A stretch of DNA of 60,192 nucleotides, the filler included. It is 5 parts of 5 records of this genome, joined end to end, with 100 filler letters (N's around TTAATTAATTAA, not from the genome) between each part and the next. Parts side by side here need not be neighbours in the genome. Positions count along the whole stretch, not along the records: positions 47,199 to 60,192 come from SRR31147125_27968; 4 more parts are not named here. The stretch is one strand, 5' to 3'. Shown piece by piece: positions 18,949 through 60,192 of this stretch. The translations under genes and the position numbers were made by a program. Numbering within the stretch: the first letter of the stretch is position 1; each line of letters opens with the position of its first letter. Under the pieces are notes generated by a model. That model ran no database searches and had not been told where the DNA came from. It was given only the letters and a program-made list of their open reading frames with translations.

Positions 18949-18960
18949 TTCTTATCCTTT

Positions 18961-20274: not shown

Positions 20275-20275
20275 A

Positions 20276-20455: not shown

Positions 20456-20460
20456 TTAAA

Positions 20461-22470: not shown

Positions 22471-22482
22471 TTAGTTATCTCC

Positions 22483-23439
22483 TTACTGCACCTTAATGCT
22501 ACGTAGTATGCCTGCTGCTTTTGTAGCTTTAAGCGCCACAGCTGCAACTATTTCTACTTCGCCCTTTTTAACTGCTCCGGCGGTTTTGAAATCAGGTAGC
22601 CATGTTTTTACAGGAGGGACACCCGCCATTGAGATACCATGAAAACCGGTCATGCCCAGCCTTGCAGCAAATAAAGAAGTTTCGCCTGTTCCCCCGTCTA
22701 TGCTAACAACTGGATCGTTTGATCCTGCTTTAGTCTTAAAGTCTACTAGAGGTATCACGCCATACTTTTCTACTTGTTGCCCAAAATCATTTTTAGTAAC
22801 AGTGTGCAGTCCTGCCCGTCTTGCACAGGCTCTTATTTTTGCAATCAGCTTCGTATTGCCTCCGATAAATGAGGGCGTGCCATCTAATCCCATTAGAAAT
22901 TCGTCCAATACATCTAAAAACGCCGCCCAGTTAGTATCCAATAAGGCGGAGGTTGATACGTCTATAGCTGCCGACGGAATAAACTCCGTAGAGGATCCGG
23001 TAATGGCTTTTTCTAGTCCATCAAAAGCACTTATATCCGTACCGCTGTCCCCATTAATAACCGTGTCGTTAAAAAGTGCTGCCGCCGCTTTAATTTTTTG
23101 CTTCATTTGTAATTCGGTTTCGCTTACAATTCCTCCAAAACCATCTATTATTCTATCAATTTCAAAAGAACCACCGAATATTTTTAAATCTGCGTTAAAG
23201 CGTTCTTTTTCAACCGTTCCAGGCGTATACTCAGAGTTTACTTCCCTGAATGCTGCTGTCGGTTGTGTTTTCAATCGTGTATACCCATAGGTCATAGTCG
23301 CCCCGGCGCCTACAGGTGAGATAACATCATGAAATTCTAGGTTATTAAATAAAAAGCTTGATTTTGCAAACTCGTCTATTACCCCTTTTTGTAAATCGTC
23401 TTGTACATTTTTACTAGCTTCTGCTAATGTAACAGCCAT
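22483..23439 (-). CDS. Major capsid protein (HK97 fold; resembles the epsilon15 gp7/BPP-1 type)
   Basis: 318 aa; AAFREVN; LKIFGGSFEIDR; INGD..FDGL; strong RBS; position after scaffold. Confidence 0.85.
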   Translation of the reverse strand: MAVTLAEASKNVQDDLQKGVIDEFAKSSFLFNNLEFHDVISPVGAGATMTYGYTRLKTQPTAAFREVNSEYTPGTVEKERFNADLKIFGGSFEIDRIIDGFGGIVSETELQMKQKIKAAAALFNDTVINGDSGTDISAFDGLEKAITGSSTEFIPSAAIDVSTSALLDTNWAAFLDVLDEFLMGLDGTPSFIGGNTKLIAKIRACARRAGLHTVTKNDFGQQVEKYGVIPLVDFKTKAGSNDPVVSIDGGTGETSLFAARLGMTGFHGISMAGVPPVKTWLPDFKTAGAVKKGEVEIVAAVALKATKAAGILRSIKVQ

Positions 23440-23523: not shown

Positions 23524-23623
23524 NNNNNNNNNNNNNNNNNNNNNNNNNNNNNNNNNNNNNNNNNNNNTTAATTAATTAANNNNNNNNNNNNNNNNNNNNN
23601 NNNNNNNNNNNNNNNNNNNNNNN
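23524..23623. other. Artificial contig spacer
   Basis: 44 N + TTAATTAATTAA + 44 N. Confidence 0.98.
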
Positions 23624-25571: not shown

Positions 25572-26998
25572 TTAATCTTCCTCTTCGTGCTGAAATTTAC
25601 CAATATTTTCCTCGATCGGTATTGGATATTTTGCCGTGAAACAGGCTGTGCAATAACCATTGTCCTGACTCACCGATTTTAAAAGTCCTTCTACGGAGAG
25701 ATAGGCGAGACTATCACAACCCAGATATTCTTTAATCTCATCAACTGTCATATTATTGGCAATAAGTTCTTCTTTACTCGGGAAATCCATACCATAATAA
25801 CAAGGAGATATGATAGGCGGGGAACTAACACGTACATGAACCTCTTTAGCTCCTGCCTGGCGAATAAGAACTACCAATTGCCGCAAGGTGGTTCCCCGTA
25901 CAATCGAGTCTTCAACGACGACTACCCGGCGACCATCAAGCACACCTTTGACGGTATTAAATTTAACCCGTACACCAAAATCCCGCATGTTTTGTTGCGG
26001 ATTGATAAACGTCCTGCCAACATAATGATTTCTGATCAAACCTAATTCGAATTTCGTATTTGTTCTTCTTGAATATCCAACGGCAGCAGTATTACTGGAG
26101 TCCGGTACGGAGATAACAATATCTGCATCTACACCGCTTTCGAGAGCTAATGTTTTACCTAGTTTTCGTCTGACTTTGTCGACATTTTCATCAAATATTC
26201 TGCTGTCCGGTCGGGCAAAATAGATGTATTCAAAAATACAAGAATGTTTTTTCGCGGAATCGGCAAAAGTAAAGCTTTTAATGCCTTTTTCACTGATTTC
26301 AATGAGCTCTCCGGGTTTGACATCCCGAACGATATTCGCACGAACAAGGTCCAGAGCACATGTTTCTGAAACAACATAATAAACGCCGTCTTTTTCACCA
26401 ATACAGAGGGGGCGCACGCCATGCCGGTCACGGGCTGCATAGATACGATCATTTGTCATCATGATAAGAGAAAAGGCACCCTGCAGTTTTTCCAAAGCCT
26501 GAACCAGTTTCTCGGCCATGGTGGTTTTTTTGATCGTGCGACGAGATGAGCAACGACTTCGGTATCTGTTGTTGTTTGAAAAAGGGAACCTTTTTCTTCC
26601 AGTTGATATCGTAATAATCCGGAATTCGTGAAATTCCCATTGTGACTAATAGCTAAATGTCCATTTTTGCTGGCAACCAGAAGTGGTTGGGCATTGATTA
26701 AATGGGTTGAACCTGTAGTGGAATATCGATTATGGCCAATAGCTAGATGACCATCAAGATAGTTGAATTTTTCCGGATCTGAAAACACATCAGCCACAAG
26801 ACCTTGTCCAACGTGGCGATAAACATGTTGCCCGTTACTACTGACGATTCCAGCACTTTCCTGGCCGCGATGTTGAAGAGCATATAAAGCTAAATAAACA
26901 AGTCTTGAGGCTTCCGGCGTGCCAAAAACGGCAGCCACACCACAATTTGATTCTGGTTTGTCGATAATATTTTTGTTCTTTGTATCCATATCTTTCAA
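25572..26998 (-). CDS. purF: Amidophosphoribosyltransferase; split at the T7 run 26525-26531
   Basis: Propeptide then CG; LQHRGQESAG; CIFEYIYFARPDS; EDSIVRGTT; PCYYGMD. Confidence 0.95.
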
Positions 26999-41381: not shown

Positions 41382-41481
41382 NNNNNNNNNNNNNNNNNNN
41401 NNNNNNNNNNNNNNNNNNNNNNNNNTTAATTAATTAANNNNNNNNNNNNNNNNNNNNNNNNNNNNNNNNNNNNNNNNNNNN
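41382..41481. other. Artificial contig spacer
   Basis: 44 N + TTAATTAATTAA + 44 N. Confidence 0.98.
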
Positions 41482-43261: not shown

Positions 43262-43532
43262 GAACAATGGGAACTGTATCAAAAATATTTTAATGAAACA
43301 GTGCGTTGATGAACTATAGATGAGTCCATTGGGTTATTGAATTGTTTAAGGACCTTGCATTCATTTAAGCATCATTACATTTTTGATGAATTTACCCAAT
43401 GAGTGAATTTTGATACAGCTTCTGTTGTGACGATCTTTTATACAGTGCGATGTGGAAAAAAATAACGTACCTGATGTGATCGGGTCTATTTTACCATTTA
43501 AGCGTGCTTATAATTTTTGTAAAGGGGGATGT

Positions 43533-44941
43533 ATGAAAATTGAAGAACCTGCCAGGGAGGGTTTCCTTTACCAAATTTGGCTGGATAAAGGATTCGGTCA
43601 ATGTAACCTGTTTACCATTGACGGAAAACCAGTCGAAATAAGAGAAAAGGGCGTGTACAATACGGATGCCGGACCTGATTTTAAAAATGCCTTAATTTTA
43701 TTAAATGATTGTCTTGAACGAGGTGATATTGAAATTCATCCTGTAGCCGGAGATTGGTACGCACATGGTCACCATCAGGATCCGCATTATAATAATGTTA
43801 TACTTCATGTTGTTACAATGAACTGTCCTTCCGATTTTCTCACCATCAACAATAATGGAAAAATTGTTCCCACCTTAAATATGGATACATTTCTTTCAAG
43901 ACCCGCTGAAGACCTGGAGCAAAGCACATTGGAACCTTTTAACGAATCGTTTGATGAAAAAACAAGGTGTGCGCTCTCTGGAAAATCCTCTGTTACGATA
44001 CAGCAAATTGTTGAAAAATATGCTGATGAACGGTTTCATAATAAATCAGAGCAGTATTTTGAAAGGAGGTATTTGTTTTCGTGGGATCAAATATTTTATG
44101 AGGCTATGCTGGAAGCTTTTGGTTATTCTAAAAACCAGGTTCCGTTCAGAAATATGGCTCAAAAGTTGCCTGTTGAAACCATATGGAATTATATTTGGAA
44201 AGATAGTGTTGAGGGTGCTTTGCATAAATGTGAAGCTTATTTATTTGGTGTTGCAGGCATGCTTCCTGTTCAGAGTGGTGCTGTTAATACCAGGCTGAGC
44301 CCGGAAGCAGAGAATTATGTTTATCGTCTGGAAAAAACGTGGGATCAATTTCCAGAGAGAAAAAAATAGAATGCCTGAAACCTCAGGATTGGAAATTTTT
44401 CAGAATGCGTCCGCAAAATTTTCCAACCCGTCGAATTGCTGCTACTGCAACTCTTGTGCTTAGATTTATGGATGATGGATTTCTTGGTACTATATTAAAA
44501 ACCATATCATCCTGTGAAGTAAAAGTTAAAAAGATTGCAAAAGAGATTGAACAACTTTTTTTAGTAAAAGCGAATGATTTCTGGCTGCATCATTTCAATT
44601 TTGATGATTCATTGATGGATAAAGTTGCTGGTAATAAAGCGGGTACATATATTATCGGTTTGGAACGGGCACGAGATATTTCTGTGAATATTGTATTACC
44701 TGTTCTGTATGCTTTTGGAAAAGAATCGGATGATGGACGTTTGAAGAATAAAATTAAGGAAATTTATCTGAGTTATCCCAGAAATACCGAAAACGAAATC
44801 ACACGAAAAATGCGAGCCAGAATATTTGGCCATTCTCAGGATGGGAAAGAGTTGATAACCGGCATTCGACAACAGCAGGGATTAATTCAAATTTGCAAGT
44901 TTATGTGTTCACCTGGTGACTGTGTCCGCTGTATCCGCTAA
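43533..44941 (+). CDS. DUF2851 family protein; split at the A7 run 44360-44366
   Basis: N.DAGPDF; GDIEIH..DW..HGH..DP.Y.NVILHV; RPQNFPTRR. Confidence 0.82.
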
Positions 44942-47098: not shown

Positions 47099-47198
47099 NN
47101 NNNNNNNNNNNNNNNNNNNNNNNNNNNNNNNNNNNNNNNNNNTTAATTAATTAANNNNNNNNNNNNNNNNNNNNNNNNNNNNNNNNNNNNNNNNNNNN
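47099..47198. other. Artificial contig spacer
   Basis: 44 N + TTAATTAATTAA + 44 N. Confidence 0.98.
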
Positions 47199-47712
47199 AC
47201 ACATTTTTTGTGAGATAGAGGCAACGCTCAGGATCAATCGCCCGGGTATTCGGAACCGCCTGAGGAAACAGAGCATAGATGGCTTTGCGATTGCTGAGCC
47301 CCTGGTTGAACTGGTCCGGTACCCGGGTCGGACACTCGGGCTCACATGCGCCACAGCCAGTGCACCGGTCGGGGTCCACATAGCGCGCCTTTTCCTCGAG
47401 CCTGACCGTGAAGTTACCCTCGGCTCCGTCAACCGAAACCACCCTGGTCTGGGTGTACATTTTGATATTGGGATGACGGCTCGATTCAACCATGCGCGGG
47501 GAGATCATACACATTGCGCAATCCCCGGTCGGAAAGGTTTTGTCAAGACGAGCCATCGTACCGCCGATGGACGGCTCTTCATTGATCATGTGGACCAGCA
47601 GCCCGCTGTCCGCCAGGTCAAGGGATGCCTGCATCCCTCCTACGCCTGAACCGACAACAAGTACCGACCCTACCTTATCCACATCATTTTCCAGGGGAGC
47701 ATTTTTCGTCAA
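47199..47712 (-). CDS. hdrA: HdrA-like flavoprotein, N-terminus (truncated)
   Basis: VVGSGVGG; SIGG.MARLDKTFPTGDCAMC; CTGCGACEPECP; RKAIY..FPQAVP. Confidence 0.88.
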
Positions 47713-48033
47713 AACAACCTCCTCCGGATCAGTCCTGCAAATGGTACCGGCTACTCAAATCTCACCGGCTTTGAACGCGGGGTCTGATCAGAATTATGAG
47801 TAGTCATATCTTTGGTCTGCGAAGCGCAACGATTCTCATTATTGTGGAATTTTGCGGAGTTGACAATCTCTTTTTTATTTTGACTCACCCCGCTGTCGAT
47901 GGTTCGATGTTTTTGTGTAATATTATTAGGCGTTTTGATGTATGGATAGTACGATCATCAATCCATGAAGCAGCGGAATCAGTACAACAGCTACAGGGTG
48001 TCTTAAAAAAAGAAGAAACCTCTGCGGATACAT

Positions 48034-49295
48034 ATGACACAGCAGAACAGATCAACCCGCATCGAGATTTTCAAGAAGGGTTTGAACCACTACCCGAAAG
48101 CGAGCTATCCGACCCGCACGGGAATATTCCATGAAATAGAAACGAAGCGGGCAGTTTTCCATTTCAACCTCAACGGGGAGATCATCCGGCTGATCGGCAA
48201 GGGGCGGGAATGGCCGCACCCCAGGAGTGGCTGAAACGAACAATCGGCAACGACTGGATCTACTATTCCACCGGTGGTTATACGGGTGTGTACGAAACCA
48301 CCGGCGAGTATTACCTCCCCAACCTCCCGTATGCTACCAACAACCACATGGGAGGCACACCGTTCGCCGACAGCAGTATCAGCAGTCTTATCGGAAGCTG
48401 GCCGGATGTCCTGAGTACCCTGGCGCAAGATACTGTCGGCGCGGATTCTGCGACCACCGAGGTCCTGGATAAAATCATGACCAACACGACCGAGGTCCTG
48501 GACCTGAGGCGTGCGCGTCTGTACCGACTCTCGAACGGCCCGGTTTCCGTTCTACCGCCCGATACCCGGCATGTCGATTACCAGGTGATCCCCCTGAACA
48601 TATCCAGGGGATGCCTCTACAAATGCGGGTTCTGCCGGGTAAAGAATGGCAGCCGGTTCACCGAGCTGAGCAGGGACCGGATCGACTCCACGCTAGACGA
48701 ACTCTCCAAGTTCGTCGGGGAGGACCTCTGTAATTTCAACGCGCTGTTTCTCGGGGAGCACGACGCCCTGAACTGCGATCCTTCGATGATCTGCGACGCG
48801 ATAAAACGAGCCCAGGACAGGCTCGCGCTCAACAACTCTTATATCGAGGGCTGCCATACATTCATGTTCGGATCGGTGTCATCGCTCCTGAAGCACGATC
48901 CGCAGTTTTTCACTGCTCTCGACAAGCTGCCCGGCCTGAAATATATCAACATCGGGCTCGAGTCCGCCCACCAGCCGACGCTCGACAGATTGCGCAAACC
49001 AGTCCCGGTAGCAGAAGTGACCGCCGCCTTCGACCGCATGCTGGAGATCAACGACGCCTTCAGGTCCATCGAGCTAACCGCCAACTTCGTCACCAGCCCC
49101 GATCTGGACCAGGATCATTACAACGCGATGCTGTCACTCATCCGCGAGCGGGTACGAACGCCCCGGTCCAAGGGCTGCATCTACCTGTCCCCGCTGCTGT
49201 TCGACTCCCCTTCCAGGGCAAGGCTGTTCGACTTCTACAAACTCAAGCGTCTCAGCCGGCTTCCACTTTTCATGTACACGATCCAGCGATTATGA
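48034..49295 (+). CDS. Radical SAM protein with N-terminal extension; split at the C4 run 48219-48222
   Basis: CLYKCGFC motif; FLGEHDAL; INIGLES; restoring one C joins WPHPQEWLKRT. Confidence 0.85.
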
Positions 49296-49362
49296 AGTAT
49301 TTATAATTCCCTGAAGGGTACGTTGAAGGTTACGGCATAATCAGGCACAGAACGGTGAACAC

Positions 49363-49956
49363 ATGCAGGACTCAAAAAAACTGAGAAAAGATATCCTCGC
49401 CCGGCGCGACCGGATCGCTCCGGAAATCCGGGACCGGAAAAGCCAGAAGATTGGTGACTCACTGCTCGCCCTGTCCGACATTGATGCGGCAGCCACAATC
49501 TTCATCTACGTCAGTTTCAGAAGCGAGGTGGCAACGCTGCCGATCATCGCCGAACTGCTGAAGAGGAAGAAAACGGTAACGGTGCCGCTCACGATGACAT
49601 CTGAGAATCGCCTTGAGATTGTCGAGATCACCGATCCCGCCAGAGAACTGGTTCCGGGATACTGCGACATACCGGAGCCGACACCGGAACATGCCCGCGA
49701 GTTTGCAGTCGATCCCGGCCGGATCGACCTGATTATTCTGCCTGGTTCGGTCTTCGATACGCGCGGCGGGCGCTACGGGTACGGCGGCGGGTATTACGAC
49801 CGGCTCCTTGAGCAGGTCCCGGGGGCCGGAAGGATCGCACTGGCCTACGAGGTGCAGATGGTCGAACGTCTCGAACTGCAGCCCCACGACCAGCTGCTCG
49901 ACCGCATCGTCACCGAGGAGCGCCTCATCACGGTCGACTCGCGAAATGGATATTGA
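49363..49956 (+). CDS. 5-formyltetrahydrofolate cyclo-ligase
   Basis: KKLRK; SEV.T; IPEP; PGSVFD..G.RYGYGGGYYDR; PHD. Confidence 0.92.
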   Translation: MQDSKKLRKDILARRDRIAPEIRDRKSQKIGDSLLALSDIDAAATIFIYVSFRSEVATLPIIAELLKRKKTVTVPLTMTSENRLEIVEITDPARELVPGYCDIPEPTPEHAREFAVDPGRIDLIILPGSVFDTRGGRYGYGGGYYDRLLEQVPGAGRIALAYEVQMVERLELQPHDQLLDRIVTEERLITVDSRNGY

Positions 49957-50016
49957 CCATATGGAGACAGTAGTGCAAACCACTTAATCCCAAAATACCT
50001 TCAGGAGGAGGACAAG

Positions 50017-51147
50017 ATGTCTCAGCATTATGCTTTCGTTGGCTGTTATAGCGGTTATGAGCCGGGGCAGCTTAGCTGGGTCGGTTCCAAACAGGCCGGA
50101 GAAGGAATTCTTTCCTTTTCGTTCAACAATGTGGATGGCTCTCTTTCCCCACTTGGTGCGATCACAAAGCAAGATTCACCGTCGTGGCTGGAAATCCATC
50201 CCAACAAGCGCTTTCTTGTTGCGACTCACGAGCTTTCTCACCACACGGGTGTTTCTGAAGGTACTGGCTTTGTTACTTCGTACAGGATCCTTTCCGATGG
50301 TGGACTCGAGAAAGTCAACACTCAGTCGACTGGCGGCCGAGGCAACACCTGTGCAGCATTTGATCGGACAGGACGTTTTCTGCTCGTAACAAGGTATTGG
50401 GAGGGTGGGATCACCGTATTACCCTTTGCCCCCGATACAGGAGAGATCGGCCCGCTTACCGCGACGCCGGATCACCCTGGTGCGGGTCCACACCCTCTGC
50501 GTCAATCATCGTCTCATCCGCACGGTATCCATGGCGACCCCCAAACGGACATGGTGTATGCGATAGATTTAGGCACGGACAAGGTGTACCAATACATCCT
50601 TGAAACAGAGACGGGGAAACTGACGCTGCATAGTGAAGTTGAGATGGCAGCAGGATCTGGCCCGCGCGGCATCAACTTCCACCCGTCATTGCGAACGGCA
50701 TATGTGAATAACGAACTTGACGGCACCGTCACGGTATGCACCGTTGACGACGATAAGGGGTTAATACCGGTACAAACGTTGTTCTGCTATCCGGAAAGCT
50801 TCGTGGCGCATGGCCACCCGGAAAATCTCGGCAAAGCTGCTTTCTGGGGTGCCGAAGGCTGCTTGTCCGGTAACGCATCACACTACTACTACATCTGTCG
50901 GGTTCACCAGAGCATTGCCGTATACACCGTTGAAGCTGACGGTACATTGGCGTATTCAAGTCGGTGCACGCTTGCGCCGAACTCTAATGCTCGGAACCTC
51001 ACGCTCGACCCGAGCGGCAGGTTTATTCTTGTGGCAAGCCAGGATGCAGATTGTGTTGAATGCTTCCGGATTGACCCGAAAACAGGTGCGCTCGAGCTGG
51101 TGCATACCCAGGGCGCTCCGTGCGCTGCCGACGTCGCGGTCATCTGA
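50017..51147 (+). CDS. Lactonase family beta-propeller (Pgl/YbhE-like)
   Basis: GPHPLRQ..SHPH; DLGTD; GSGPRG; ARN..LDPSG. Confidence 0.85.
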   Translation: MSQHYAFVGCYSGYEPGQLSWVGSKQAGEGILSFSFNNVDGSLSPLGAITKQDSPSWLEIHPNKRFLVATHELSHHTGVSEGTGFVTSYRILSDGGLEKVNTQSTGGRGNTCAAFDRTGRFLLVTRYWEGGITVLPFAPDTGEIGPLTATPDHPGAGPHPLRQSSSHPHGIHGDPQTDMVYAIDLGTDKVYQYILETETGKLTLHSEVEMAAGSGPRGINFHPSLRTAYVNNELDGTVTVCTVDDDKGLIPVQTLFCYPESFVAHGHPENLGKAAFWGAEGCLSGNASHYYYICRVHQSIAVYTVEADGTLAYSSRCTLAPNSNARNLTLDPSGRFILVASQDADCVECFRIDPKTGALELVHTQGAPCAADVAVI

Positions 51148-51372
51148 ACCGAAATCCCGAATTCCCGGTTTAACTGCAAATTGCTCAAGCAGTTTATCCG
51201 GGCCCATGAGAATGCGCAGCGAGGTATCTGGTTATGCGTAGCTGGTTGGACGAATGATCGTCAGACAACATTTTTCTGAATAGCAGTAACGAACTGGAGA
51301 TACGTAGTTTTTATGTAAATTGAGCATTGACGGTATCAGTTCATTCAGTCTTTTACCTGGAGGGGTGCACAC

Positions 51373-52704
51373 ATGACAGTCGAAAAACTGGACAGTTCTT
51401 CTCGTTTAATCCTGCATAGAACCAGCAAGCAAGATGTAAGCAAGGGCATCAGTGTCATTGTCAAGGGAGAAGGGATTCGCGTTTTCGACCAGGATGGCAA
51501 AGCATACATTGATCTGGAAGCAGGCGGGACGCGCCCTGTCCATGTCGGCTATGGCCGCACAGAACTGGCCCGGGCAGGTTATGACCAGATGTGTGAGATG
51601 CCCTATTTCACACCGATGGCGTTCGCCACCGTCCCCGCGATGCAGCTTGCTGAAAAATTGGCGGAAATCACCCCCACCGGAATAGAGCGCTTCATCTTTG
51701 AATGTGACGGGTCTGAGGCGGTGGAAACCTCAATGAAACTGGCAAAGCATTACCATTACTATCGAGGTGACCAGGCACGCTACAAGATAATTTCCCGCAG
51801 AGGAGCATACCACGGAGTTAACGGCATTGGCGTCAGGGCATTGGGCATAGTCATGCCCATGCGGCAACTCATGGAGCCATTGGCCCCGGGAGCAGCCTTT
51901 ATTGAATCCCCGTATTGTTACCGGTGCCCGCACAACCTGGAATATCCTGACTGCGACATGGCGTGTGCACGCGAGCTGACCCGCATCATCGAGTTTGAAG
52001 GCCCCGACCAGATTTCCATGTTTATTGGGGAACCGATTCAACAAGGTTTTGGTGCCTACAGGCCACCCCCTGAATATTGGCCACTGATCAGAGAAATATG
52101 TGATCAGTATGGAATCCTACTGGTAATTGATGAAGTCATATGCGGATTTGGCCGTACCGGGAAGATGTTTGCAACCGATCACTTCGACGTTCAGCCAGAC
52201 ATGATGACAATGGCAAAAGGATTGACCAGTGGTTATGTCCCCCTTGGAGCGGTTGGTTGCTCAGACAAAGTTATCGAAAAGACAGAACTCCTGAATCATT
52301 TGCACACCTACGGCAATCATCCGGTGTCGTGTGCTGTCGGTCTCAAAAACCTCGAGCTGCTGGAGAATGAAAAGCTGGTCGAAAACAGTGAAAAAATTGG
52401 CACCTACTTCCTTGAAGGTCTGAAAACGCTTGAACATCACCCTACCGTGGGTGAAGTACGCGGGACCGGGCTCTGGTTGGGAATGGACTTTACCGTCGAT
52501 AAAAAGACACGCGCCCCTTACCCCATTGAAAATATGATGAGTATTATATCCAGGGCTAAGGAGAAAGGCGTTCTCATCAAAACCATGGGTATGGCACTGG
52601 AGTTTGCACCGCCGCTGATTATCACGAAAGAAGAGGTGGACGAAGTCATCCCCGTTCTTGACGAATGCATCACCGAGGAAGAAAAGGTTTTGGCCCTCTC
52701 ATGA
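51373..52704 (+). CDS. Class III PLP aminotransferase (omega-amine/taurine-type; substrate unknown)
   Basis: GSEAVETSMK; AYHG; DEVICGFGRTG; MAKGLTSGY; HTYGNHP. Confidence 0.9.
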   Translation: MTVEKLDSSSRLILHRTSKQDVSKGISVIVKGEGIRVFDQDGKAYIDLEAGGTRPVHVGYGRTELARAGYDQMCEMPYFTPMAFATVPAMQLAEKLAEITPTGIERFIFECDGSEAVETSMKLAKHYHYYRGDQARYKIISRRGAYHGVNGIGVRALGIVMPMRQLMEPLAPGAAFIESPYCYRCPHNLEYPDCDMACARELTRIIEFEGPDQISMFIGEPIQQGFGAYRPPPEYWPLIREICDQYGILLVIDEVICGFGRTGKMFATDHFDVQPDMMTMAKGLTSGYVPLGAVGCSDKVIEKTELLNHLHTYGNHPVSCAVGLKNLELLENEKLVENSEKIGTYFLEGLKTLEHHPTVGEVRGTGLWLGMDFTVDKKTRAPYPIENMMSIISRAKEKGVLIKTMGMALEFAPPLIITKEEVDEVIPVLDECITEEEKVLALS

Positions 52705-52884
52705 TATCCATTCAATCAGGAGAGAAAAAAACGCAAAAGAGAATACCCAACTGAAAAGAAGCTTGTGTATATACCGTAACTCACCGTATACATAGCGGTG
52801 CATAAAAGCTGATGTACCCTGTCGAAGGATGCAGTGATCAGTTTTCCTCCAGGACATGTCCTGCATCATGCAACATGAGGATCG

Positions 52885-54651
52885 ATGACTTCGAAACAAG
52901 GTGTAGCGGAAACACTGTATCCCCTTCTCATAGCCGTGGCCATTGGTGTTCTTGCAGGTCTGGGTGCCGTGCTCTTCCGCATGCTTATCAGTTTTGAGAT
53001 CGATTTACTGTGGCCGGATGGCGCCAATTTTGTAGAAAGTTACTCGAAAGCCCATTGGGCGTGGCGTCTGGCGGCACCGATGCTCGCCGGTTTGCTCATC
53101 AGCCCCCTGATTTTTCGCGCTGCACCCGAGGTGAGAGGCCCGGGGGTTTCTGAGGTCATCAAGGCTCTCAGCCTTAAGGACGGCGTTATCCGCCGCCGGG
53201 TTACCCTGCTTAAAAGCTTTGCAACCGCGACCTTTATTGCATGCGGGTGTTCCGTTGGCCGTGAAGGGCCAATCGTACACATTGGTGCCTCAATCGGTTC
53301 CTCGGTTACCCAGTTCCTGCGACTGGGGCCGGATAAACGAAAACTGGCTATCGCGTGCGGCGCAGCTGCAGGCATTGCAGCCACATTTCAGGCTCCAATG
53401 ACCGGGACCATGTTTGCGGTCGAAATACTCCTTTTTGACCTGGAAGTCGCATCGCTTTCAAACATCGTCATTGCCTCCGTGACCGGAACCGTTGTGGCCA
53501 CAACGGTGGGGTCGAATGAAGCAATTTTCCACATCCCCTTCTTTACCCTTTCTCATCCCGGTGAGCTGCTCCTCTATGTCCTCCTGGGTCTGACTACCGG
53601 CCTGTTCAGTTTGCTTTTCATGGCGTATATTTTCTCGCTGCCGAGACTGTTCAGCACGCTGCGCATCCCGCAATGGCTTGCGCCTGCAGCAGCAGGGCTG
53701 GCTGTCGGAGGAATCGGCCTCTTCTGCCCTCAGGCTCTGGGCGTGGGTTATGAAACCATCAATGAGGTCCTGAGCAGTCAGAGTGTCCTTGGCGTAGTTG
53801 CGCTGATATTCATAGCCAAGATTGTCACTACCGGCCTCTGTGTCGGCTCAGGCATGAGCGGCGGGGTCTTCGCCCCTTCCCTCTTTATCGGCGCAATGCT
53901 TGGCTGCCTGTTTGGTCATGTCGCTACCCTCTTCTGGCCTGACATGCCCCTTTCTCCAGCACATTACGGCTTGATAGGAATGGGGGCGTTTGTTGCAGGC
54001 ACAACGCTTGCCCCGATAACAGCAATCCTGACTATCTTTGAATTAACCTATAACTACCAGGTTGTATTACCCTTGATGGCGGCCTGCATTCCCAGCCTTG
54101 TTGTCGTTCGCCTGGTCCATGATTTTTCAATCTACGAGACAAAACTTCTCACTCAGGGTATCCGGATCGTACGGGGTCGTGACGCCAATCGACTTCGGTC
54201 ATTAAAAGTGAAAAACACCATGTGTGAAGAGTATGAGTTTCTCAGGACATCGACACCATTTCATGAGTTGGTAAAAATGGTTCTGCATAGTCCGTTTCCT
54301 CATTTCATGGTACTCGACGAAAAAGATTTTCTCGTCGGGGTGCTCAGCCTGCGAGACATTAGAAGCAGGCTGGCAGACCCCGATTACACGGGTGATGAAG
54401 AAGTCGCGGCCGACATCATGACAAAAGATGTTATTACCGTGCGTGAAGACCAGAATCTCGAAAATGCCTTCAAGCTGTTTTCTCAAGGGAACTTTTCATT
54501 TTTACCGGTTTTGAGCAAAACACAATCAAACAAGGTTGTCGGATATCTGAAAAAAGATGATTTGCTGAATTCATATGAACAACATATCTTGAGAGGACAG
54601 GTGCGTCCGGCAAACCCGTGGGTCTCTCCCATCTCCAAATCTCTGAGATAA
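52885..54651 (+). CDS. ClC family anion channel/transporter with CBS pair
   Basis: GPGVSE; GREGP; GGVFAP; SIYE; C-terminal CBS domains. Confidence 0.92.
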   Translation: MTSKQGVAETLYPLLIAVAIGVLAGLGAVLFRMLISFEIDLLWPDGANFVESYSKAHWAWRLAAPMLAGLLISPLIFRAAPEVRGPGVSEVIKALSLKDGVIRRRVTLLKSFATATFIACGCSVGREGPIVHIGASIGSSVTQFLRLGPDKRKLAIACGAAAGIAATFQAPMTGTMFAVEILLFDLEVASLSNIVIASVTGTVVATTVGSNEAIFHIPFFTLSHPGELLLYVLLGLTTGLFSLLFMAYIFSLPRLFSTLRIPQWLAPAAAGLAVGGIGLFCPQALGVGYETINEVLSSQSVLGVVALIFIAKIVTTGLCVGSGMSGGVFAPSLFIGAMLGCLFGHVATLFWPDMPLSPAHYGLIGMGAFVAGTTLAPITAILTIFELTYNYQVVLPLMAACIPSLVVVRLVHDFSIYETKLLTQGIRIVRGRDANRLRSLKVKNTMCEEYEFLRTSTPFHELVKMVLHSPFPHFMVLDEKDFLVGVLSLRDIRSRLADPDYTGDEEVAADIMTKDVITVREDQNLENAFKLFSQGNFSFLPVLSKTQSNKVVGYLKKDDLLNSYEQHILRGQVRPANPWVSPISKSLR

Positions 54652-54722
54652 TGTGCAACACTCACCCGGTCTACTCTTGACTTCATAATCGAGTCTCCGC
54701 TGAATTTCTGGAGCTGAGCTCC

Positions 54723-54772
54723 CAACAAATTGTTGTTCAATAATTGACATTTATCGTAGTGGCCGGTAGATT
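54723..54772 (+). promoter_or_regulatory. Sigma70-type promoter with adjacent palindrome
   Basis: CAACAA-A-TTGTTG (54723-54735); TTGACA (54744) - 17 nt - TAGATT (54767). Confidence 0.55.
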
Positions 54773-54865
54773 CGACAGGAATATCCCTGTCACCGATATG
54801 TCGGGAGGGACCTTCACAATTCTCCTGCCGACCCGGGTACACTAAATCCGAGCTGCGAGATTGTT

Positions 54866-56581
54866 ATGAAATTACTTGTGGGCTTGTCACTCCTTGTTTT
54901 TCTGGCCGGAATCTCCTATAGAATCTACGGCTGGGTTTCGCACACGATCCTCTCTGCACACACGACTGCCGTCTCCAGCCGGCCCGCCGCCGCACTGAAA
55001 GCGTTGTTCGGTACACTCCTGAGTGGGAGGTTGGTCACCGTCGTCAAAACATTTTTTACCGATGTCCTGTTCCAGAAGCGGCTGCTTGCGAAATCCACCC
55101 TGCGCTGGGTCGCTCACTGCCTGATCTTTTTCGGGTTCATTCCGCTGCTCTTGATGCACGGCCTGGGCACCGGCTTCAGCACGTTCCTGTTCGACGGATA
55201 TGAGTCGACGCTGCAACCCTTCCTGAGCCTGCGCAACCTGTTCGGGCTGATGGTCCTGGTCGGCGTCTGTATTGCGCTGTACCGGAGACTGACCGACAAA
55301 CCGCAGAGAGTGAAAAGTTATGCGAGCGACTGGGTTTCGCTGGCGCTGGTAGGGGCGATTGTGCTCACCGGTATGATCCTCGAGAGCTCGAAAATCGCTT
55401 CCTACGATGCATTCGTAACAATGGCGGAGGATTACGGGGATATCACCGAGGCGGAGGAGTTGCTGCCCCTGGAAACCTATTGGGCTGCCGAGCACGGGCT
55501 GAAGTCGCCCAACGCGGTCAAACCGTTTGATCCCGCATTGATAGAGGAGGGGCGCGAGATCAGTGTCGACACCTGCATGGATTGCCATGCGCCGGCGTCT
55601 CAGGCCTTCGTGAGTTTTCCGCTGGCCAGAGTGGTGGGTCCGATTGCGGCGGCTCTTGGCGATGGATCGATCGTCTCACTGCTGTTCTGGATTCATATCC
55701 TCTGCTGTCTTGGCCTGCTGGCCTGGCTGCCGTTTTCGAAGATGTTTCATGTAATCAGCGCCCCGACCTCGCTACTGATCAACGGCGTGATGGGATTCAA
55801 GGAGCCGGGCGGCGACCCTGCCAACGTACTCAACAGGCGCATGATCGGCCTGTCCGCCTGTACTCACTGCGGAGCCTGCAGTGAACTCTGCTCGTCACTG
55901 ATGTTCTACGAATCGTTTCAGAACAACTTCATCCTGCCGTCGGAGAAGGTCCAGATCCTGAAGCAGGCGGCCGCCGGTAAGCAGATCGACCGGGACACAC
56001 TGAGTAATCTGCAGAAAGGACTCTATATCTGTACCAGCTGCGACCGCTGCTCCGAGGTCTGCCCGTCCGGCATCAACCTGCGGGACCTGTTCGTCAGCTC
56101 ACGATATGAGCTGTTGCAGCAGGGGATTCCCGAGACATCGATGTGGAGCCATTTTTCCTTCCCGCTGTCGCTGACCAGGAACTTCATCGACGATCACCGC
56201 AGCGCGTTGAAGAAACTGGAGATCATCTTCAGCGACTCGTTCACGCGACTCAAGGATCTCACGACAATAACCATCGGAGACCCTGCCCGGGTCGGCACCA
56301 ACAGTTACCAGGGCTGCTACTCCTGTCAGCGCTGCACCAATATCTGCCCGGTGGTCCGGCTCTATGATGACCCGGTCGAGAAACTCGACATGCTTCCCCA
56401 CCAGATTATCTTCAGCCTCGGCATCGGCAACAAGGATATCGCGGTGGGCTCGCAGATGATCTGGAGCTGCTCGACCTGCTACCTGTGCCAGGAGCACTGC
56501 CCGAACCAGGTGGAGCTCACCGATATTTTCTACAACCTCAAGAACGAGGCCCTCAAGAAAATAGAAGGAGGTCGCGCATGA
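54866..56581 (+). CDS. Fusion protein: NarI/HdrE-like membrane domain + CxxCH loop + two HdrC-like 2[4Fe-4S] domains
   Basis: His pairs AH..MH and IH..SKMFH; CMDCH; four CxxCxxCxxxC motifs. Confidence 0.82.
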   Translation: MKLLVGLSLLVFLAGISYRIYGWVSHTILSAHTTAVSSRPAAALKALFGTLLSGRLVTVVKTFFTDVLFQKRLLAKSTLRWVAHCLIFFGFIPLLLMHGLGTGFSTFLFDGYESTLQPFLSLRNLFGLMVLVGVCIALYRRLTDKPQRVKSYASDWVSLALVGAIVLTGMILESSKIASYDAFVTMAEDYGDITEAEELLPLETYWAAEHGLKSPNAVKPFDPALIEEGREISVDTCMDCHAPASQAFVSFPLARVVGPIAAALGDGSIVSLLFWIHILCCLGLLAWLPFSKMFHVISAPTSLLINGVMGFKEPGGDPANVLNRRMIGLSACTHCGACSELCSSLMFYESFQNNFILPSEKVQILKQAAAGKQIDRDTLSNLQKGLYICTSCDRCSEVCPSGINLRDLFVSSRYELLQQGIPETSMWSHFSFPLSLTRNFIDDHRSALKKLEIIFSDSFTRLKDLTTITIGDPARVGTNSYQGCYSCQRCTNICPVVRLYDDPVEKLDMLPHQIIFSLGIGNKDIAVGSQMIWSCSTCYLCQEHCPNQVELTDIFYNLKNEALKKIEGGRA

Positions 56582-57522
56582 AACTGGCTTTCTTTCAGGG
56601 GTGTAATATACCGATAAGGATCGAGCAGTACGCGGTATCGGCGACGGCGGTCCTGGACAAGCTGGGAGTGCAGCTCGAGGAAATCGAGACCTTCACCTGC
56701 TGCGGATACCCGGTCAGGAACGTGGACGAGAAGGCGTACATCATCCCGTCGGTAAGAAACCTCGCGATTGCCGAGCAGAAAGGGCTCGACATCATGGTCC
56801 TGTGCAACTGCTGTTTTGCCAGTCTGCAAAAGGCCAAATCCGTCATGCAGGGAAATCCGGCACTGGCCTCGGAGATCAATGAACTGCTCGCGAAAGACGG
56901 TCTGAGCTACAGCGGGAAAACGGAGGTCAAACACTTCCTCACTGTTCTGCACGAAGATATCGGGCTTGAGACGATGAGAAAACAGCTGGTCAAGATGGTC
57001 AGCGACCTCAACCTCTCGGTGATCCACGGCTGCCACGTACTGCGCCCCCGCGAGGTGACCAGGTTCGATGACTCATTCGTACCGAGGATCACCGACGAGC
57101 TGCTCGCGTTAACTGGAGCGACAAGTCTCGACTGGCGCGGCAGACTTGAGTGTTGCGGGGCTGCGCTGGCCGGCATCAACAGCGACCTCGCCGATGCGCT
57201 CCTCAATGAAAAAGTTGACACCGCACTCGCCGCCGGCGCCGAGTTCATCATGCCGGTCTGCTCGTACTGCCACCTGCAGTTTGATACCACTCAGCCGGCG
57301 ATCCGGAAACAGGAAGCAGACCAGCCGGTAATACCGACACTGCTTTTACCGCAGTTGCTCGGTCTCTGCCTCGGAATCGACGAAAAAATCCTCGGACTGG
57401 AACAGAACACGACCATCGAGTCTACCCATGCGGAACAGATTCGTGCGCGACTCGGGCCACCGGTCGAAAAGAAAAAAGGAAGAAAAAACGGACACAGAAG
57501 GCCGCAGCCTGAATCAGGCTGA
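56578..57522 (+). CDS. hdrB: Heterodisulfide reductase subunit B-like protein (two CCG domains)
   Basis: FQGC; TCCG; CNCC; HGCH; ECCG; CSYCHLQFD; ATGA overlap with the upstream gene. Confidence 0.88.
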   Translation: MKLAFFQGCNIPIRIEQYAVSATAVLDKLGVQLEEIETFTCCGYPVRNVDEKAYIIPSVRNLAIAEQKGLDIMVLCNCCFASLQKAKSVMQGNPALASEINELLAKDGLSYSGKTEVKHFLTVLHEDIGLETMRKQLVKMVSDLNLSVIHGCHVLRPREVTRFDDSFVPRITDELLALTGATSLDWRGRLECCGAALAGINSDLADALLNEKVDTALAAGAEFIMPVCSYCHLQFDTTQPAIRKQEADQPVIPTLLLPQLLGLCLGIDEKILGLEQNTTIESTHAEQIRARLGPPVEKKKGRKNGHRRPQPESG

Positions 57523-57542
57523 CACGTTTGCGCAGAAGACAC

Positions 57543-57586
57543 AAGGAAGCAACCTCGGTTCACAGACCGATTGCTTCCTTTTTTTT
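57543..57586 (+). terminator. Intrinsic terminator after hdrB
   Basis: AAGGAAGCAA..TCGGT/ACCGA-TTGCTTCCTT stem followed by a T-run. Confidence 0.8.
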
Positions 57587-57655
57587 CAAACCAGTGCTTA
57601 TACTGATTTGCGGAAGAGATGAGACCCATAAAATCGTAAACATAACAGGAAGATC

Positions 57656-58414
57656 ATGAGTAAAGTAATCGCATTTGCGGGAAAGGGCGGAGTCGGAAAA
57701 ACCACGGTGGCAGCATTGGTCGTTCGCTCACTATCCAAAAACGGCCGAACACCCATTCTCGCCGTCGATGCAGACCCGAACAGCAACCTCGGCGAAACTC
57801 TGGGACTCGATGTGACCTCAACTATCGGCGACATCCGGGAAAATTTCATGCGCGACCCGCAGGGTATACCCTCCGGCATGGACAAGGCCGTCTATCTCGA
57901 AATGCTGGTCGAGCAAGCGCTGATCGAGAAATCCGCTTTCGACCTGCTGGTCATGGGACGCCAGGAAGGCCAGGGGTGTTACTGCATGGTCAACAACATC
58001 CTCCACAACTTCACCGAGAAGCTGTCTCAGGCATACCGCTACATGGTCGTCGACAACGAGGCCGGCATGGAGCACCTGAGCAGGCGCACCAGCGGCAAGG
58101 TAGACACACTCTTCTTAGTGACGGACTACTCCCTGCGCGGGCTCAGGGCATTGAAGCGCATCGGCGAGATGCTTGAAAGCCTCAAACTCGAGGTCGCGGA
58201 CCTGGGGATCGTCGTGACTCGTGCACCGGCTGAGCTCAACGAGAAGTTTCTTGCCGAAGTTGAAGAGATCGGGATACCGATCGTCGGCATCATTCCCGAC
58301 GACCCGGCCCTGCTCGACTTCGATATGGAAAAACGCTCACTGATGGAGTTGAATGACGACTCGCCGGCAGTTGTTGCCGTCGACTCACTGCTCGAAGAAA
58401 AGTGTCCGGCGTAG
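57656..58414 (+). CDS. cooC: CooC/AcsF-family Ni-insertion ATPase
   Basis: GKGGVGKTT; DADPNSNL; GCYC; DNEAGMEHLSR. Confidence 0.88.
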   Translation: MSKVIAFAGKGGVGKTTVAALVVRSLSKNGRTPILAVDADPNSNLGETLGLDVTSTIGDIRENFMRDPQGIPSGMDKAVYLEMLVEQALIEKSAFDLLVMGRQEGQGCYCMVNNILHNFTEKLSQAYRYMVVDNEAGMEHLSRRTSGKVDTLFLVTDYSLRGLRALKRIGEMLESLKLEVADLGIVVTRAPAELNEKFLAEVEEIGIPIVGIIPDDPALLDFDMEKRSLMELNDDSPAVVAVDSLLEEKCPA

Positions 58415-58457
58415 CTGCATTTTACCCGGGCCACAATGAGGAAACCGGAGGCTACCC

Positions 58458-58673
58458 ATGGGCCACGATGTCAGCGTCTTCACCCCTTATCCCTTCAGGG
58501 TCGGCCAGAAGATCCGCATAGAACAGTCTCGACGGGCGGGAGATTGGGAAGTCGCCTCCGTCGGGGAGCATTCCGTCACCCTGCGCTGTCCGATTTCCGG
58601 AAAAGAATTCGAATGGAATACATTCTGCTACCTGGTTGACGAAGAGCGGGACTCGATCTGGCCCCGCGACTGA
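58458..58673 (+). CDS. Small hypothetical protein (71 aa)
   Basis: GGAGG RBS; SH3-like pattern F.VGQKI.I..GDWEV. Confidence 0.6.
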   Translation: MGHDVSVFTPYPFRVGQKIRIEQSRRAGDWEVASVGEHSVTLRCPISGKEFEWNTFCYLVDEERDSIWPRD

Positions 58674-58742
58674 CGGACAGGCGCCGGCTCACATCTCATG
58701 CCGCCACCCTCACGGCAGCGGCTGCTTCCCGAAGGAGCTATC

Positions 58743-60128
58743 TTACATGCACAGCGCCGCATGAAGCGCTTTCTGTGCACCCGCAAACTGCTCCCTGTTG
58801 ACGATGAACTGCATATTGGTCTGACGGCTGGTCTGCGATACGGCGAGGATATTGATGCTGTCCCTGGCCAGTGCCTGAGTGGCTGTGGCCATAATTCCCG
58901 GCTGCCCGATATTGGATCCGATCGCACAGACAATGGCGACCGGGGTAGACGTGATCGTCTCGAACGAATCGCTGAGCTGGGCCAGCAGGTGAGGTGAGCA
59001 GTCACGTTCGAGGATGATCAGGTCGATGGTATTGGCGTTGGTCATCTTACTGATATAGGACACTTCGTGCCGGTCGAACACCGTCATGATCCGGCGGTCG
59101 AACCCGACCTCGCCGACCATCCGCGTGTCGTGAATCTCGAGACAGACGACCTTGTTCGAGCCGGTGACGATCTCCACCTTGGACTCCGGTGCGACGAAAT
59201 CTTTGGTGATCAACGTACCCGGGTGCTCGGGATCGAAAGCGTTCTTTATCCGGATCGGGGTCGAATTGATCTCGAGCGGTTTGGCGGACTTGGGATGAAT
59301 CGCCTCCATGCCGACGTCTGCAAGTTGATCGGCAACGTCGTAGTTCGTGGCGCAGACCGGGTGGGCAATATCCTCCCCCATCAGCAGCGGGTCTCCCGAG
59401 CAGAGGTGATACTCCTTGTGAATGATCGCCTCGCTGGCCCCAAGCATAATCGCTACCTTGGAGAAGGTCACCTCCGAGTATCCGCGGTCGAACTCCCGCA
59501 TGATCCCCTCTGTCCCCTTCGTGTATCCGGTTGCAAAACAGATGGTGGAGAACGGGTCGAGATGGTCGAAGCTGTCTTTGATACGCTGATCGATCGTCAA
59601 CTGCCTGCCGTCATCCCATCCGCTCAGGTCCACGAACGTCGCATCGTATCCCCGCCTCTGGAGAATGTTGGCCGAGTTGAACGCGCTGTGCATCTCGCCA
59701 AGCGATGCGAGCAGTTCGCGGGCGGCGAGCAGCAGTTCCCCACGCGACACGTAGCCGGATGCCAGCACATTTTCCATGGAGCGCAGGATGTTGATGGAAT
59801 GATCGATGCGATCGCCGATAAAGTCATTTGCGACATCGACATCGAGGCCGGCTTCCGCGAGTGTCTCATTGAATTCCACCAGCCGATCCCTGAGCGCCAG
59901 CATCTTACGGGGATAGTTATCCTGATCCTCGAACAGCTGATATATCCCCGCCTGGCCGGTCTTCTTGTGTTCAAGCAGGTCGTTGGTGACCCCGGCGTAG
60001 GCCGACACCACGTACACGCGGCCCAGTACGTCCTCAGGATCCCGCAGGATAATGTTCTCAAGTATTTCCGGAAAACGGGACATGGAGGTCCCGCCGATTT
60101 TCTCAACGCGAAGGTTATGTCGTTTCAT
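58743..60128 (-). CDS. ask: Aspartate kinase, ectoine-associated (Ask_Ect-like) subtype
   Basis: VEKIGGTSMS; VVSAYAGVT..LLEHKKTG; FDRGYSE; IHKEYHL; C-terminal ACT domains. Confidence 0.87.
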   Translation of the reverse strand: MKRHNLRVEKIGGTSMSRFPEILENIILRDPEDVLGRVYVVSAYAGVTNDLLEHKKTGQAGIYQLFEDQDNYPRKMLALRDRLVEFNETLAEAGLDVDVANDFIGDRIDHSINILRSMENVLASGYVSRGELLLAARELLASLGEMHSAFNSANILQRRGYDATFVDLSGWDDGRQLTIDQRIKDSFDHLDPFSTICFATGYTKGTEGIMREFDRGYSEVTFSKVAIMLGASEAIIHKEYHLCSGDPLLMGEDIAHPVCATNYDVADQLADVGMEAIHPKSAKPLEINSTPIRIKNAFDPEHPGTLITKDFVAPESKVEIVTGSNKVVCLEIHDTRMVGEVGFDRRIMTVFDRHEVSYISKMTNANTIDLIILERDCSPHLLAQLSDSFETITSTPVAIVCAIGSNIGQPGIMATATQALARDSINILAVSQTSRQTNMQFIVNREQFAGAQKALHAALCM

Positions 60129-60192
60129 GGCAATTCTGCAGATGTTTCCAAATTATCACGGTGATTCATCACCGTATCTTCCTAATCAGTTT

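Follow-up and report, generated by a model that had tools for sequence, protein, structure and literature searches.

A NarI-type membrane cytochrome with a putative heme c loop and two ferredoxin domains, paired with HdrB in Desulfobacterota: a possible membrane module of Hdr-type methylene-tetrahydrofolate reductase

The stretch of DNA analyzed here (the window, 60,192 nucleotides (nt); all positions count along its whole length) carries in its last piece (47199–60192) two overlapping genes that encode a 571-aa membrane protein and an HdrB-type subunit (Table 1). The stop codon of the 571-aa open reading frame (ORF) shares bases with the ATG of hdrB at 56578 in an ATGA overlap. The Pfam model Nitrate_red_gam (NarI, PF02665) matches residues 72–185 of the membrane protein with 49.9 bits (cut-off 22.9), together with a second stretch, and the chain contains two histidine pairs, H84-x13-H98 and H277-x17-H295, and a CMDCH motif. 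The chain, its overlap with a CCG-type HdrB, the histidine pairs and the CMDCH motif are all present as the original prediction for this locus had described them. The four ferredoxin motifs, which it had assigned to two HdrC-like units, are present as well; when a profile of the family is compared with solved structures, the second ferredoxin domain (profile positions 463–555) matches HdrC (8rvu_c, E 8.6e-20), whereas the first resembles SdhB/FrdB-type proteins. The HdrB-type subunit aligns end to end with methanogen HdrB (5odc_B, residues 1–275, E 1.4e-54) with all 10 cluster cysteines in register, and it scores 222.7 bits on TIGR03288, below the equivalog cut-off of 345.15. Independent contigs of run X1 show no indel within the 571-aa gene and one extra A behind 57471, which would alter roughly the last 17 residues of HdrB.

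The pair had also been credited with its own promoter and terminator, of which the terminator stands and the promoter has weak evidence. The terminator hairpin at 57543–57580, which a simple terminator scan had missed, folds with a z score of −6.1, and none of 200 shuffled sequences folds as well; an indel in the run X1 contigs at 57578 lengthens its T-run. Promoter-like matches in the region number 2, versus 1.7 expected from shuffles, so that the TTGACA-17-TAGATT match carries no above-chance signal. No sigma-54-like promoter pattern was found upstream of the 571-aa gene, and the window-wide count of this pattern is lower than the shuffle mean.

The architecture of the 571-aa protein fits no curated family. 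Every NCBIfam match lies far under its cut-off: the HdrC models TIGR03290 and NF041779 score 66.8 bits (cut-off 160) and 29.4 bits (cut-off 350), a likeness at the level of domains only; QmoC (NF038018), the best NCBIfam match for the membrane domain, scores 82.1 bits (cut-off 300); and the DsrK model scores 22 bits, with DsrK, TmcB and HmcF weakly matching the iron–sulfur (FeS) part. The chain has two dicluster domains and no CCG domain and therefore falls outside the single-chain definition of EMO/EtfD/HdrF. A protein-atlas search with residues 175–270 returned only fragments of the same family, with scores below 0.9, and full-text literature searches, which covered main texts, found neither a NarI-heme c-double-ferredoxin protein paired with HdrB nor a membrane subunit in an Hdr-type methylene-tetrahydrofolate (methylene-THF) reductase; PMC7894505, PMC4911364 and PMC6295475 make no mention of such an architecture. 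The family is unnamed but common in genomes. Same-length relatives of the 571-aa protein number 1182 at E ≤ 0.001 in a word-indexed collection, and a 50%-representative protein library holds 134 matches at E ≤ 1e-30. Of 401 evenly drawn Desulfobacterota genomes, 76 give a match when the limit is set at E ≤ 1e-30, a number that falls to 62 with a limit of E ≤ 1e-170, and at least 14 encode two full-length copies. Named carriers are almost all Desulfobacterota, with one Casimicrobiaceae metagenome-assembled genome, and the public names are generic (‘4Fe-4S dicluster domain-containing protein’, ‘heterodisulfide reductase subunit C/nitrate reductase gamma subunit’).

An AlphaFold2 model of the 571-aa protein, built on a 66-sequence alignment (pLDDT 88.8, pTM 0.82), contains five long membrane helices (2–25, 78–99, 119–143, 153–178 and 266–309), with the four histidines on helices 78–99 and 266–309. 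An 87-residue, mostly helical loop (179–265) joins helices 4 and 5 and holds both the CxxCH motif and Met186, in agreement with the original prediction of about five hydrophobic segments and of a motif in the loop before the last helix. This loop has a net charge of −11 and is acidic in every one of the 66 aligned members, whereas loops 26–77 and 144–152 are positive (+6 and +2), and in no member does either of them turn negative. Because the FeS domains must be cytoplasmic, the CxxCH loop is placed on the outer face; it is thus predicted to face the periplasm, as had been proposed, and this agrees with the topology of the NarI family (N-terminus out, C-terminus in), given for EMO in the available part of a preprint (10.64898/2026.08.18.745454). 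The candidate ligands are strongly conserved. CxxCH, Met186 and the four histidines are all kept in 63 of 65 full-length sequences (the window protein, P0066 and 63 further representatives, down to ~31% identity), the two exceptions being without the loop, and 128 of 130 genome-encoded members of full length retain all eight putative heme-ligand residues, the exceptions being L122, which sits on a very long branch, and L057. The motif and H84, H98, H277 and H295 are invariant in the 66-sequence alignment, as are the 16 ferredoxin cysteines, and Met186 is retained in 66/66 aligned members, 63/65 representatives and 129/130 genome-encoded members. Cytochrome c assembly genes (PF01578) were found in all five related genomes searched. 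From these features we infer that the 571-aa protein binds heme b, heme c and FeS cofactors.

The neighborhoods of related genes supply the context for a functional assignment. In a set of 79 close loci, from genomes labeled Desulfofustis, Desulfopila, Desulforhopalus, Desulfosediminicola, Desulfoprunum, Desulfotalea and other Desulfocapsaceae/Desulfobulbaceae, HdrB adjoins the 571-aa-type gene without exception, and a CooC-type ATPase gene follows hdrB in 73; the remaining 6 contigs end inside hdrB. Clustering of adjoining ORFs, together with Pfam scans, yields two layouts. The first runs MvhD-MetV-MetF-regulators-571-aa-type gene-HdrB-CooC; in genome G001, which has this layout, a 1013-aa HdrA precedes MvhD-MetV-MetF and regulator genes stand before the cytochrome gene, and locus L075 is fully collinear (HdrA-MvhD-MetV-MetF-571-aa-type gene-HdrB-CooC). 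The second, Desulfofustis-type layout begins with HdrA-MvhD on the opposite strand, followed by a radical SAM gene (upstream in 19 related loci, cluster c13), a 5-formyl-THF cyclo-ligase gene (directly upstream of the cytochrome gene in 22 related loci, cluster c12), the 571-aa-type gene, HdrB and CooC. At least one of MetF, MetV, MvhD, HdrA and the cyclo-ligase is encoded in 45 of the 59 close loci whose upstream sequence spans 5.5 kb or more, and in all five genomes nearest the window MetF lies just past the divergent HdrA-MvhD genes. An acetyl-CoA synthase gene is present in five of five relatives searched (14.5 kb from the cytochrome gene in G001), which, with the CooC neighbor, fits a role in the Wood–Ljungdahl pathway.

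Two further observations concern the flanks of these loci. Upstream of HdrA-MvhD-MetV-MetF in locus L138 (G001:C1:3203000-3222900) lie genes for a fused homocysteine S-methyltransferase–methylene-THF reductase (MTHFR) protein (633 aa), an HdrC-like ferredoxin (256 aa) and a further MTHFR-like protein (290 aa). In the Desulfocapsaceae/Desulfobulbaceae clade, the place after the CooC-type ATPase is taken by a 71-aa ORF in 21 loci and by a 228-aa zinc-ribbon protein in 44, neither of which has an assigned function; the ATPase and both of these proteins are absent from the distant clades.

The more distant members, 60 loci from the 401-genome sample that are 35–41% identical to the window protein, retain the pairing with HdrB in 58 cases; of the other two, L142 ends 227 nt past the gene and L165 has no HdrB match of half length or more. 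A large HdrA is encoded in 28 of these loci, MvhD in 23, MetF or MetV in 12 and any of the four in 33, and none of the 60 has a CooC-type ATPase. At least five (L144, L147, L151, L156 and L162) share the order metF-571-aa-type gene-hdrB-hdrA-mvhD-metV, with gene spacings too tight for a separate hdrC. In a quick maximum-likelihood tree (80 rows, midpoint root, SH-aLRT support), the window is nested within one large clade dominated by HdrA or MetFV contexts. Context labels cluster on the tree (18 changes vs 35.4 in shuffles), a clustering that kinship alone could give. In two of the distant loci, L130 and L131, the pair lies 6–8 kb from genes for a monoheme cytochrome c and an MtrC/MtrF-like multiheme cytochrome.

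Among solved structures, the model of the 571-aa protein best matches M. smegmatis EtfD (9OJN, E 7.5e-7), followed by HdrC chains and, weakly, NarI; a single-sequence search of residues 1–320 against solved structures gave nothing at E up to 1. With EMO/EtfD/HdrF it shares the order of its parts, an N-terminal NarI-type five-helix heme b domain ahead of a dicluster domain in the cytoplasm and of non-cubane clusters like those of HdrB, and also the membrane topology, with the N-terminus out and the C-terminus in, as far as the accessible portion of that report describes it (10.64898/2026.08.18.745454). The window pair differs in that its CCG domains reside on a separate HdrB, in its second dicluster domain and in its 87-residue outward CxxCH loop; the neighbors of such pairs are, moreover, HdrA, MvhD and MetFV and not ETF. 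In three single-chain proteins of 711–716 aa (P0167, P0186 and P0214), this CxxCH loop occurs together with a single ferredoxin domain and with CCG domains fused to the chain, which makes them EMO/HdrF-like enzymes with a predicted heme c, and P0265 is a loop-less EMO-like form. The family is a branch of the EMO/HdrF/HdrDE kind, in which the CCG part is split off as HdrB and the membrane chain has gained an additional ferredoxin domain and an inserted heme c loop. The original claim that the architecture matches none of the known ones with which it was compared holds for curated families but not in the sense that it lacks relatives, since EtfD/EMO also place the NarI part before FeS and fused forms with the CxxCH loop exist.

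The family can likewise be set against other membrane complexes. Profile positions 263–311 align to helix 5 of NarI (1q16_C residues 170–218, E 1.3e-6), and the H-x17-H spacing of the 571-aa protein is one that we take to be that of NarI helix 5; unlike the 571-aa protein, NarI has no FeS domains, no heme c and a short loop between helices 4 and 5. In QmoC, which works with HdrA-like flavoproteins, an HdrC-like FeS domain and a NarI/HdrE-like cytochrome b are likewise fused, but in reverse order with the membrane part C-terminal (residues 53–178 of the 571-aa protein match model positions 195–319 of 360); to our knowledge, Qmo has neither HdrB nor heme c. In HdrDE of Methanosarcina and in DsrMK, TmcBC and HmcEF of sulfate reducers, a NarI-family cytochrome b and a CCG-domain FeS protein link quinone or periplasm to a cytoplasmic disulfide site. 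These systems consist of two separate subunits with an HdrD-type fusion of FeS and CCG parts, and Tmc, Hmc and Dsr carry their hemes c on separate subunits, whereas in the window protein the cytochrome b itself carries FeS domains and a heme c motif. The same six gene products as in MetFV-HdrABC-MvhD of Moorella thermoacetica and Sporomusa ovata are encoded together in loci related to the window, with an HdrA of 1011–1013 aa compared with 101 kDa for S. ovata (PMC9430772, in the part available). The HdrC of the acetogen enzyme is small and soluble, and the available text of the two studies gives it no subunit with transmembrane helices (PMC9430772, PMC6895022); in the Desulfobacterota set, HdrC is replaced by the membrane heme b/c fusion, with MetFV not seen on the window piece. 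The nearest literature mentions, in the accessible text of the respective papers, are EMO (10.64898/2026.08.18.745454), HdrF in Desulfobacterium autotrophicum (PMC2702500) and a different complex of a heme c and CCG protein with HdrA in HotSeep-1 (PMC10553843).

The window itself is composed of five pieces joined by four N44-TTAATTAATTAA-N44 spacers (11734–11833, 23524–23623, 41382–41481 and 47099–47198), so that gene order across the joins carries no meaning; a chimera or genomic island reading of the GC jump near 47–48 kb was rejected on this account. The last piece follows the Desulfofustis-type layout but stops short of MvhD and MetVF. Its hdrA-like fragment is cut by the end of the piece; contigs of run X1, a possible source of this DNA, cover the whole piece, and one of them extends 1813 nt further left. 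Three genes (50017–54651) for a 7-bladed lactonase, a class III aminotransferase and a CLC channel with CBS domains stand between the cyclo-ligase and the cytochrome gene, an insert found at that position in none of the 79 related loci. The CooC-type ATPase combines a MinD-type P-loop with a C-x-C metal motif, both features of CooC, which inserts nickel into CO dehydrogenase; no curated CooC model is among its NCBIfam matches. Of the gene set for a six-subunit MTHFR, the window holds the HdrC-like fusion, HdrB and the cut hdrA, and the full set stands beside the pair in relatives.

Table 1. Features of the last piece of the window, with the cofactor-related segments of the 571-aa protein.
Feature	Positions	Strand	Basis or remark
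hdrA-like 5' fragment, residues 1-171	47200..47712	-	tblastn, 90.6% identity to 1011-aa HdrA-like protein of L003
Radical SAM protein	48210..49295	+	Pfam Radical_SAM, E 1.7e-6, 28.8 bits, just below 29.5-bit cut-off
5-formyltetrahydrofolate cyclo-ligase	49363..49956	+	Pfam 5-FTHF_cyc-lig, E 1.5e-38
Sigma-70-like promoter match TTGACA-17-TAGATT	54744..54772	+	weak evidence; 10/12 positions match
571-aa membrane protein gene	54866..56581	+	NarI-type domain, predicted outward CxxCH loop, two dicluster ferredoxin domains
Met186 codon, candidate sixth heme c ligand	55421..55423	+	conservation; predicted ligand role
CMDCH, putative heme c attachment motif, residues 237-241	55574..55588	+	invariant; in acidic loop 179-265
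First 2x[4Fe-4S] ferredoxin domain, residues 329-403	55850..56074	+	Pfam Fer4_8; 8 invariant Cys
Second 2x[4Fe-4S] ferredoxin domain, HdrC-like, residues 481-546	56306..56503	+	Pfam Fer4_10; 8 invariant Cys
HdrB-type subunit, complete, two CCG domains (non-cubane [4Fe-4S])	56578..57522	+	Pfam CCG x2; C-terminal tail uncertain
Intrinsic terminator, hairpin 57543-57580 + U8	57543..57588	+	-20.6 kcal/mol
CooC-type P-loop ATPase, C-x-C motif	57656..58414	+	Pfam CbiA; best solved match CooC1 3kje, E 1.3e-17, CYC aligned to CYC
71-aa ORF, no Pfam match	58458..58673	+	tblastn in 21/79 loci, 65-80% identity

As regards sequence quality and origin, the run X1 contigs differ from the window by single-base (once two-base) indels at 48005, 48218, 51270, 52735, 57471 and 57578. 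The small-share runs X2 and X4 contain only relatives, 90–99% alike, in short contigs, and enter into no conclusion here. Pieces 1–4 (1–47098) have a GC content of 31–41% and Bacteroidota-style genes (a SusC/SusD pair, an Arm-DNA-binding integrase, DUF5683 and DUF2851), and the last piece is Desulfofustis-like with 52–58% GC; the record seems to mix two organisms. Pieces 2 and 3 carry a contractile phage-tail gene set on the minus strand (12140–23439) that includes sheath, tube, tape measure, baseplate J, Gp48-like, tail terminator and LysM proteins. Genes for a SusC-like receptor (2934–6046), a glutamine amidotransferase (25572–26998) and a DUF2851 protein (43452–44941) each appear to be split into two overlapping ORFs, which points to frameshift errors or pseudogenes in this low-GC part of the window.

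On the basis of gene neighborhoods, and of these only, we lean slightly towards the view that the pair is the membrane-anchored HdrC/HdrB module of an Hdr-type methylene-THF reductase, linked to menaquinone and/or periplasmic cytochromes c. A periplasm- or quinone-linked heterodisulfide reductase had been the original prediction; the pairing with HdrB bears it out in part, but the context of HdrA-MvhD-MetVF does not support a free-standing enzyme, and the pair is probably not autonomous in function despite its own terminator. The domains, the motifs and their conservation, the topology signals and the gene neighborhoods are read directly from the sequences; we infer, as for the cofactors, that a complex forms, which enzyme is its partner and which way its electrons run. 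The 571-aa subunit would hold two hemes b in its NarI-type bundle, with His84/His295 near the cytoplasm and His98/His277 near the periplasm, one covalent heme c in the outward loop, attached via Cys237, Cys240 and His241 and probably ligated by Met186, and four [4Fe-4S] clusters in the two cytoplasmic ferredoxin domains, the second, HdrC-like one of which would dock HdrB with its two non-cubane clusters. The resulting wire would lead from heme c on the outside through the distal and then the proximal heme b and the four [4Fe-4S] clusters to HdrB. Proteins of this type would stand in for HdrC, with MetF, MetV, MvhD and the large HdrA as partners, in an enzyme of the kind that Moorella and Sporomusa have in a soluble, six-subunit form. 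Electrons would pass between the cytoplasmic folate couple on one side and menaquinone, periplasmic cytochromes c or both on the other. Run reductively, the wire would take up electrons from outside while protons are used inside, so that a membrane potential would be built; reduction from periplasmic low-potential cytochromes c would carry charge into the cell, with a gain in conserved energy. Run oxidatively, it would give methyl-THF an acceptor more positive than NAD. The potential of menaquinone lies near −74 mV. With the folate couple at −200 mV, the value in the available portions of three studies (PMC9430772, PMC6895022, PMC13040438), oxidation of methyl-THF by menaquinone would be downhill. 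The further-reaching proposal that the whole assembly is a respiratory methylene-THF reductase, and as such the missing membrane link of the Wood–Ljungdahl pathway, with cytochromes c or menaquinol feeding heme c, the hemes b and FeS and then HdrB, HdrA, MvhD and MetFV, is one that we put forward tentatively and regard as rather doubtful. On that proposal, the covalent heme c may take the place of the second heme in the stacked twin-heme cofactor recently seen at the outer site of EMO.

Several observations weigh against assigning the pair to a methylene-THF reductase. MetF, MetV and MvhD are not seen on the window, where the piece ends inside hdrA, and the three-gene insert and the terminator separate the window pair from its neighbors. 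None of the partner genes is within reach in 14 of the 59 close loci, the same is true of HdrA, MvhD, MetF and MetV in 27 of the 60 distant ones, and two basal clades of the tree are mostly without HdrA/MetFV neighbors. Related genomes searched contain 3–9 MTHFR-domain matches each, so that the adjoining MetF may not be the Wood–Ljungdahl one, and MetV is near-universal (322 of the 401 Desulfobacterota genomes), which makes co-occurrence at the genome level uninformative. Cytochrome c profiles, moreover, gave no Pfam match on residues 175–270 even at E up to 1. Because partner genes are missing in many loci, because the pair has its own terminator, and because of the many MTHFR-domain matches and the ubiquity of MetV, we treat as a serious rival, if an unlikely one, the idea that the pair is a general membrane anchor or electron hub with no special tie to the folate reductase. 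In that role it would connect a Qmo-like HdrA-MvhD flavoprotein module, or other dehydrogenases, to menaquinone by electron exchange, and HdrB would act on an unknown disulfide or on no acceptor at all. HdrA or MvhD is indeed encoded in 32 distant loci versus 12 with MetF or MetV, the 27 loci in which the pair stands alone often place it beside sigma-54 regulators (20/60), the 14 or more genomes with two full-length copies would suit a hub, and so would varied neighbors such as an HdrD-like protein, a NuoE-like protein and c-type cytochromes; in EtfD/EMO, whose solved fold comes nearest, the donor is a different one again, ETF, according to the part of the report at hand (10.64898/2026.08.18.745454). 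Against a general hub, wherever a catalytic partner can be recognized in these loci it is MetFV, in two distant clades with different gene orders, and the clade of the window is nested among members linked to HdrA/MetFV; no GlpAB-like neighbor came up among the proteins scanned, although no search was aimed at GlpA.

The two remaining alternatives touch the cofactors and the substrate. The CxxCH motif could hold no heme and instead, as part of a structural loop, bind a metal or form a disulfide, in which case the protein would simply be a quinol oxidoreductase with two hemes b, akin to EMO/HdrDE but with HdrB split off. This is what the missing Pfam match would suggest, the only cytochrome c hints being sub-threshold (3vrd_A, E 0.0069, with the family profile, and PF13442, E 0.004, in P0214); we also know of no polytopic membrane protein with a heme c attached in one of its internal loops. 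Given that no cytochrome c profile matches the loop, the case for heme c is built on motif, conservation and topology. Two cysteines, a histidine and a distant methionine are kept family-wide to ~31% identity, the loop is acidic in all 66 members and lies on the side opposite the FeS domains, the motif follows a helix (223–236) in the model, as CxxCH does in class I cytochromes c, and heme c maturation genes occur in all five relatives, so that we consider a heme-free motif improbable. To a similar degree we doubt that the pair is a Tmc/Hmc/DsrMK-like sulfur conduit, carrying electrons from periplasmic cytochromes c or menaquinol through the HdrB site to a trisulfide or disulfide of DsrC in sulfate reduction or sulfur disproportionation. 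The weak matches of DsrK, TmcB and HmcF to the FeS part and the near-restriction of named carriers to Desulfobacterota speak for such a conduit, as do two points from one paper in its available portion, namely the absence of Qrc and Rnf from Desulfobulbales, stated in a figure legend, which leaves room for another link between cytochrome c, quinone and cytoplasm, and the heme c, CCG and HdrA complex of HotSeep-1 (PMC10553843). The second subunit is, however, of the true HdrB type and not of the DsrK type, whose model scores so low on the first protein, and the conserved neighbors are folate, HdrA and CooC genes, none of them a dsr, apr or qmo gene. With no sulfur-metabolism gene conserved nearby and a true HdrB as second subunit, a DsrC-linked role is less likely than a general hub.

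How the methylene-THF reductase step of the Wood–Ljungdahl pathway is tied to energy conservation is an old question. Studies of S. ovata, Thermacetogenium phaeum and M. thermoacetica locate the Hdr-type enzyme at the membrane, in electron exchange with quinones (PMC9430772, PMC6895022, PMC13040438). Membranes of S. ovata and T. phaeum couple the Hdr-type enzyme to quinone analogues, yet no transmembrane subunit is known from the available text of these studies (PMC9430772, PMC6895022); the activity in T. phaeum is there described as membrane-associated and dependent on a quinone analogue without a membrane subunit (PMC6895022). A 2026 model for Moorella has menaquinol and NADH jointly reduce methylene-THF (PMC13040438), and the quinone-facing protein of the Hdr-type enzyme is explicitly called unknown in the accessible passages of all three papers (PMC9430772, PMC6895022, PMC13040438). 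The membrane cytochrome that replaces HdrC in Desulfobacterota, and that occurs in cultured strains (Desulfosediminicola flagellatus, Desulfopila aestuarii, Desulfofustis glycolicus and Desulfoprunum benzoelyticum), is a concrete candidate for this link between enzyme and quinone. The family also extends the EMO/HdrDE/Qmo group of membrane Hdr-like proteins by an internal-loop heme c motif and a doubled ferredoxin module. If the reading as a respiratory methylene-THF reductase is true, the folate step itself would build, or in reverse consume, membrane potential.

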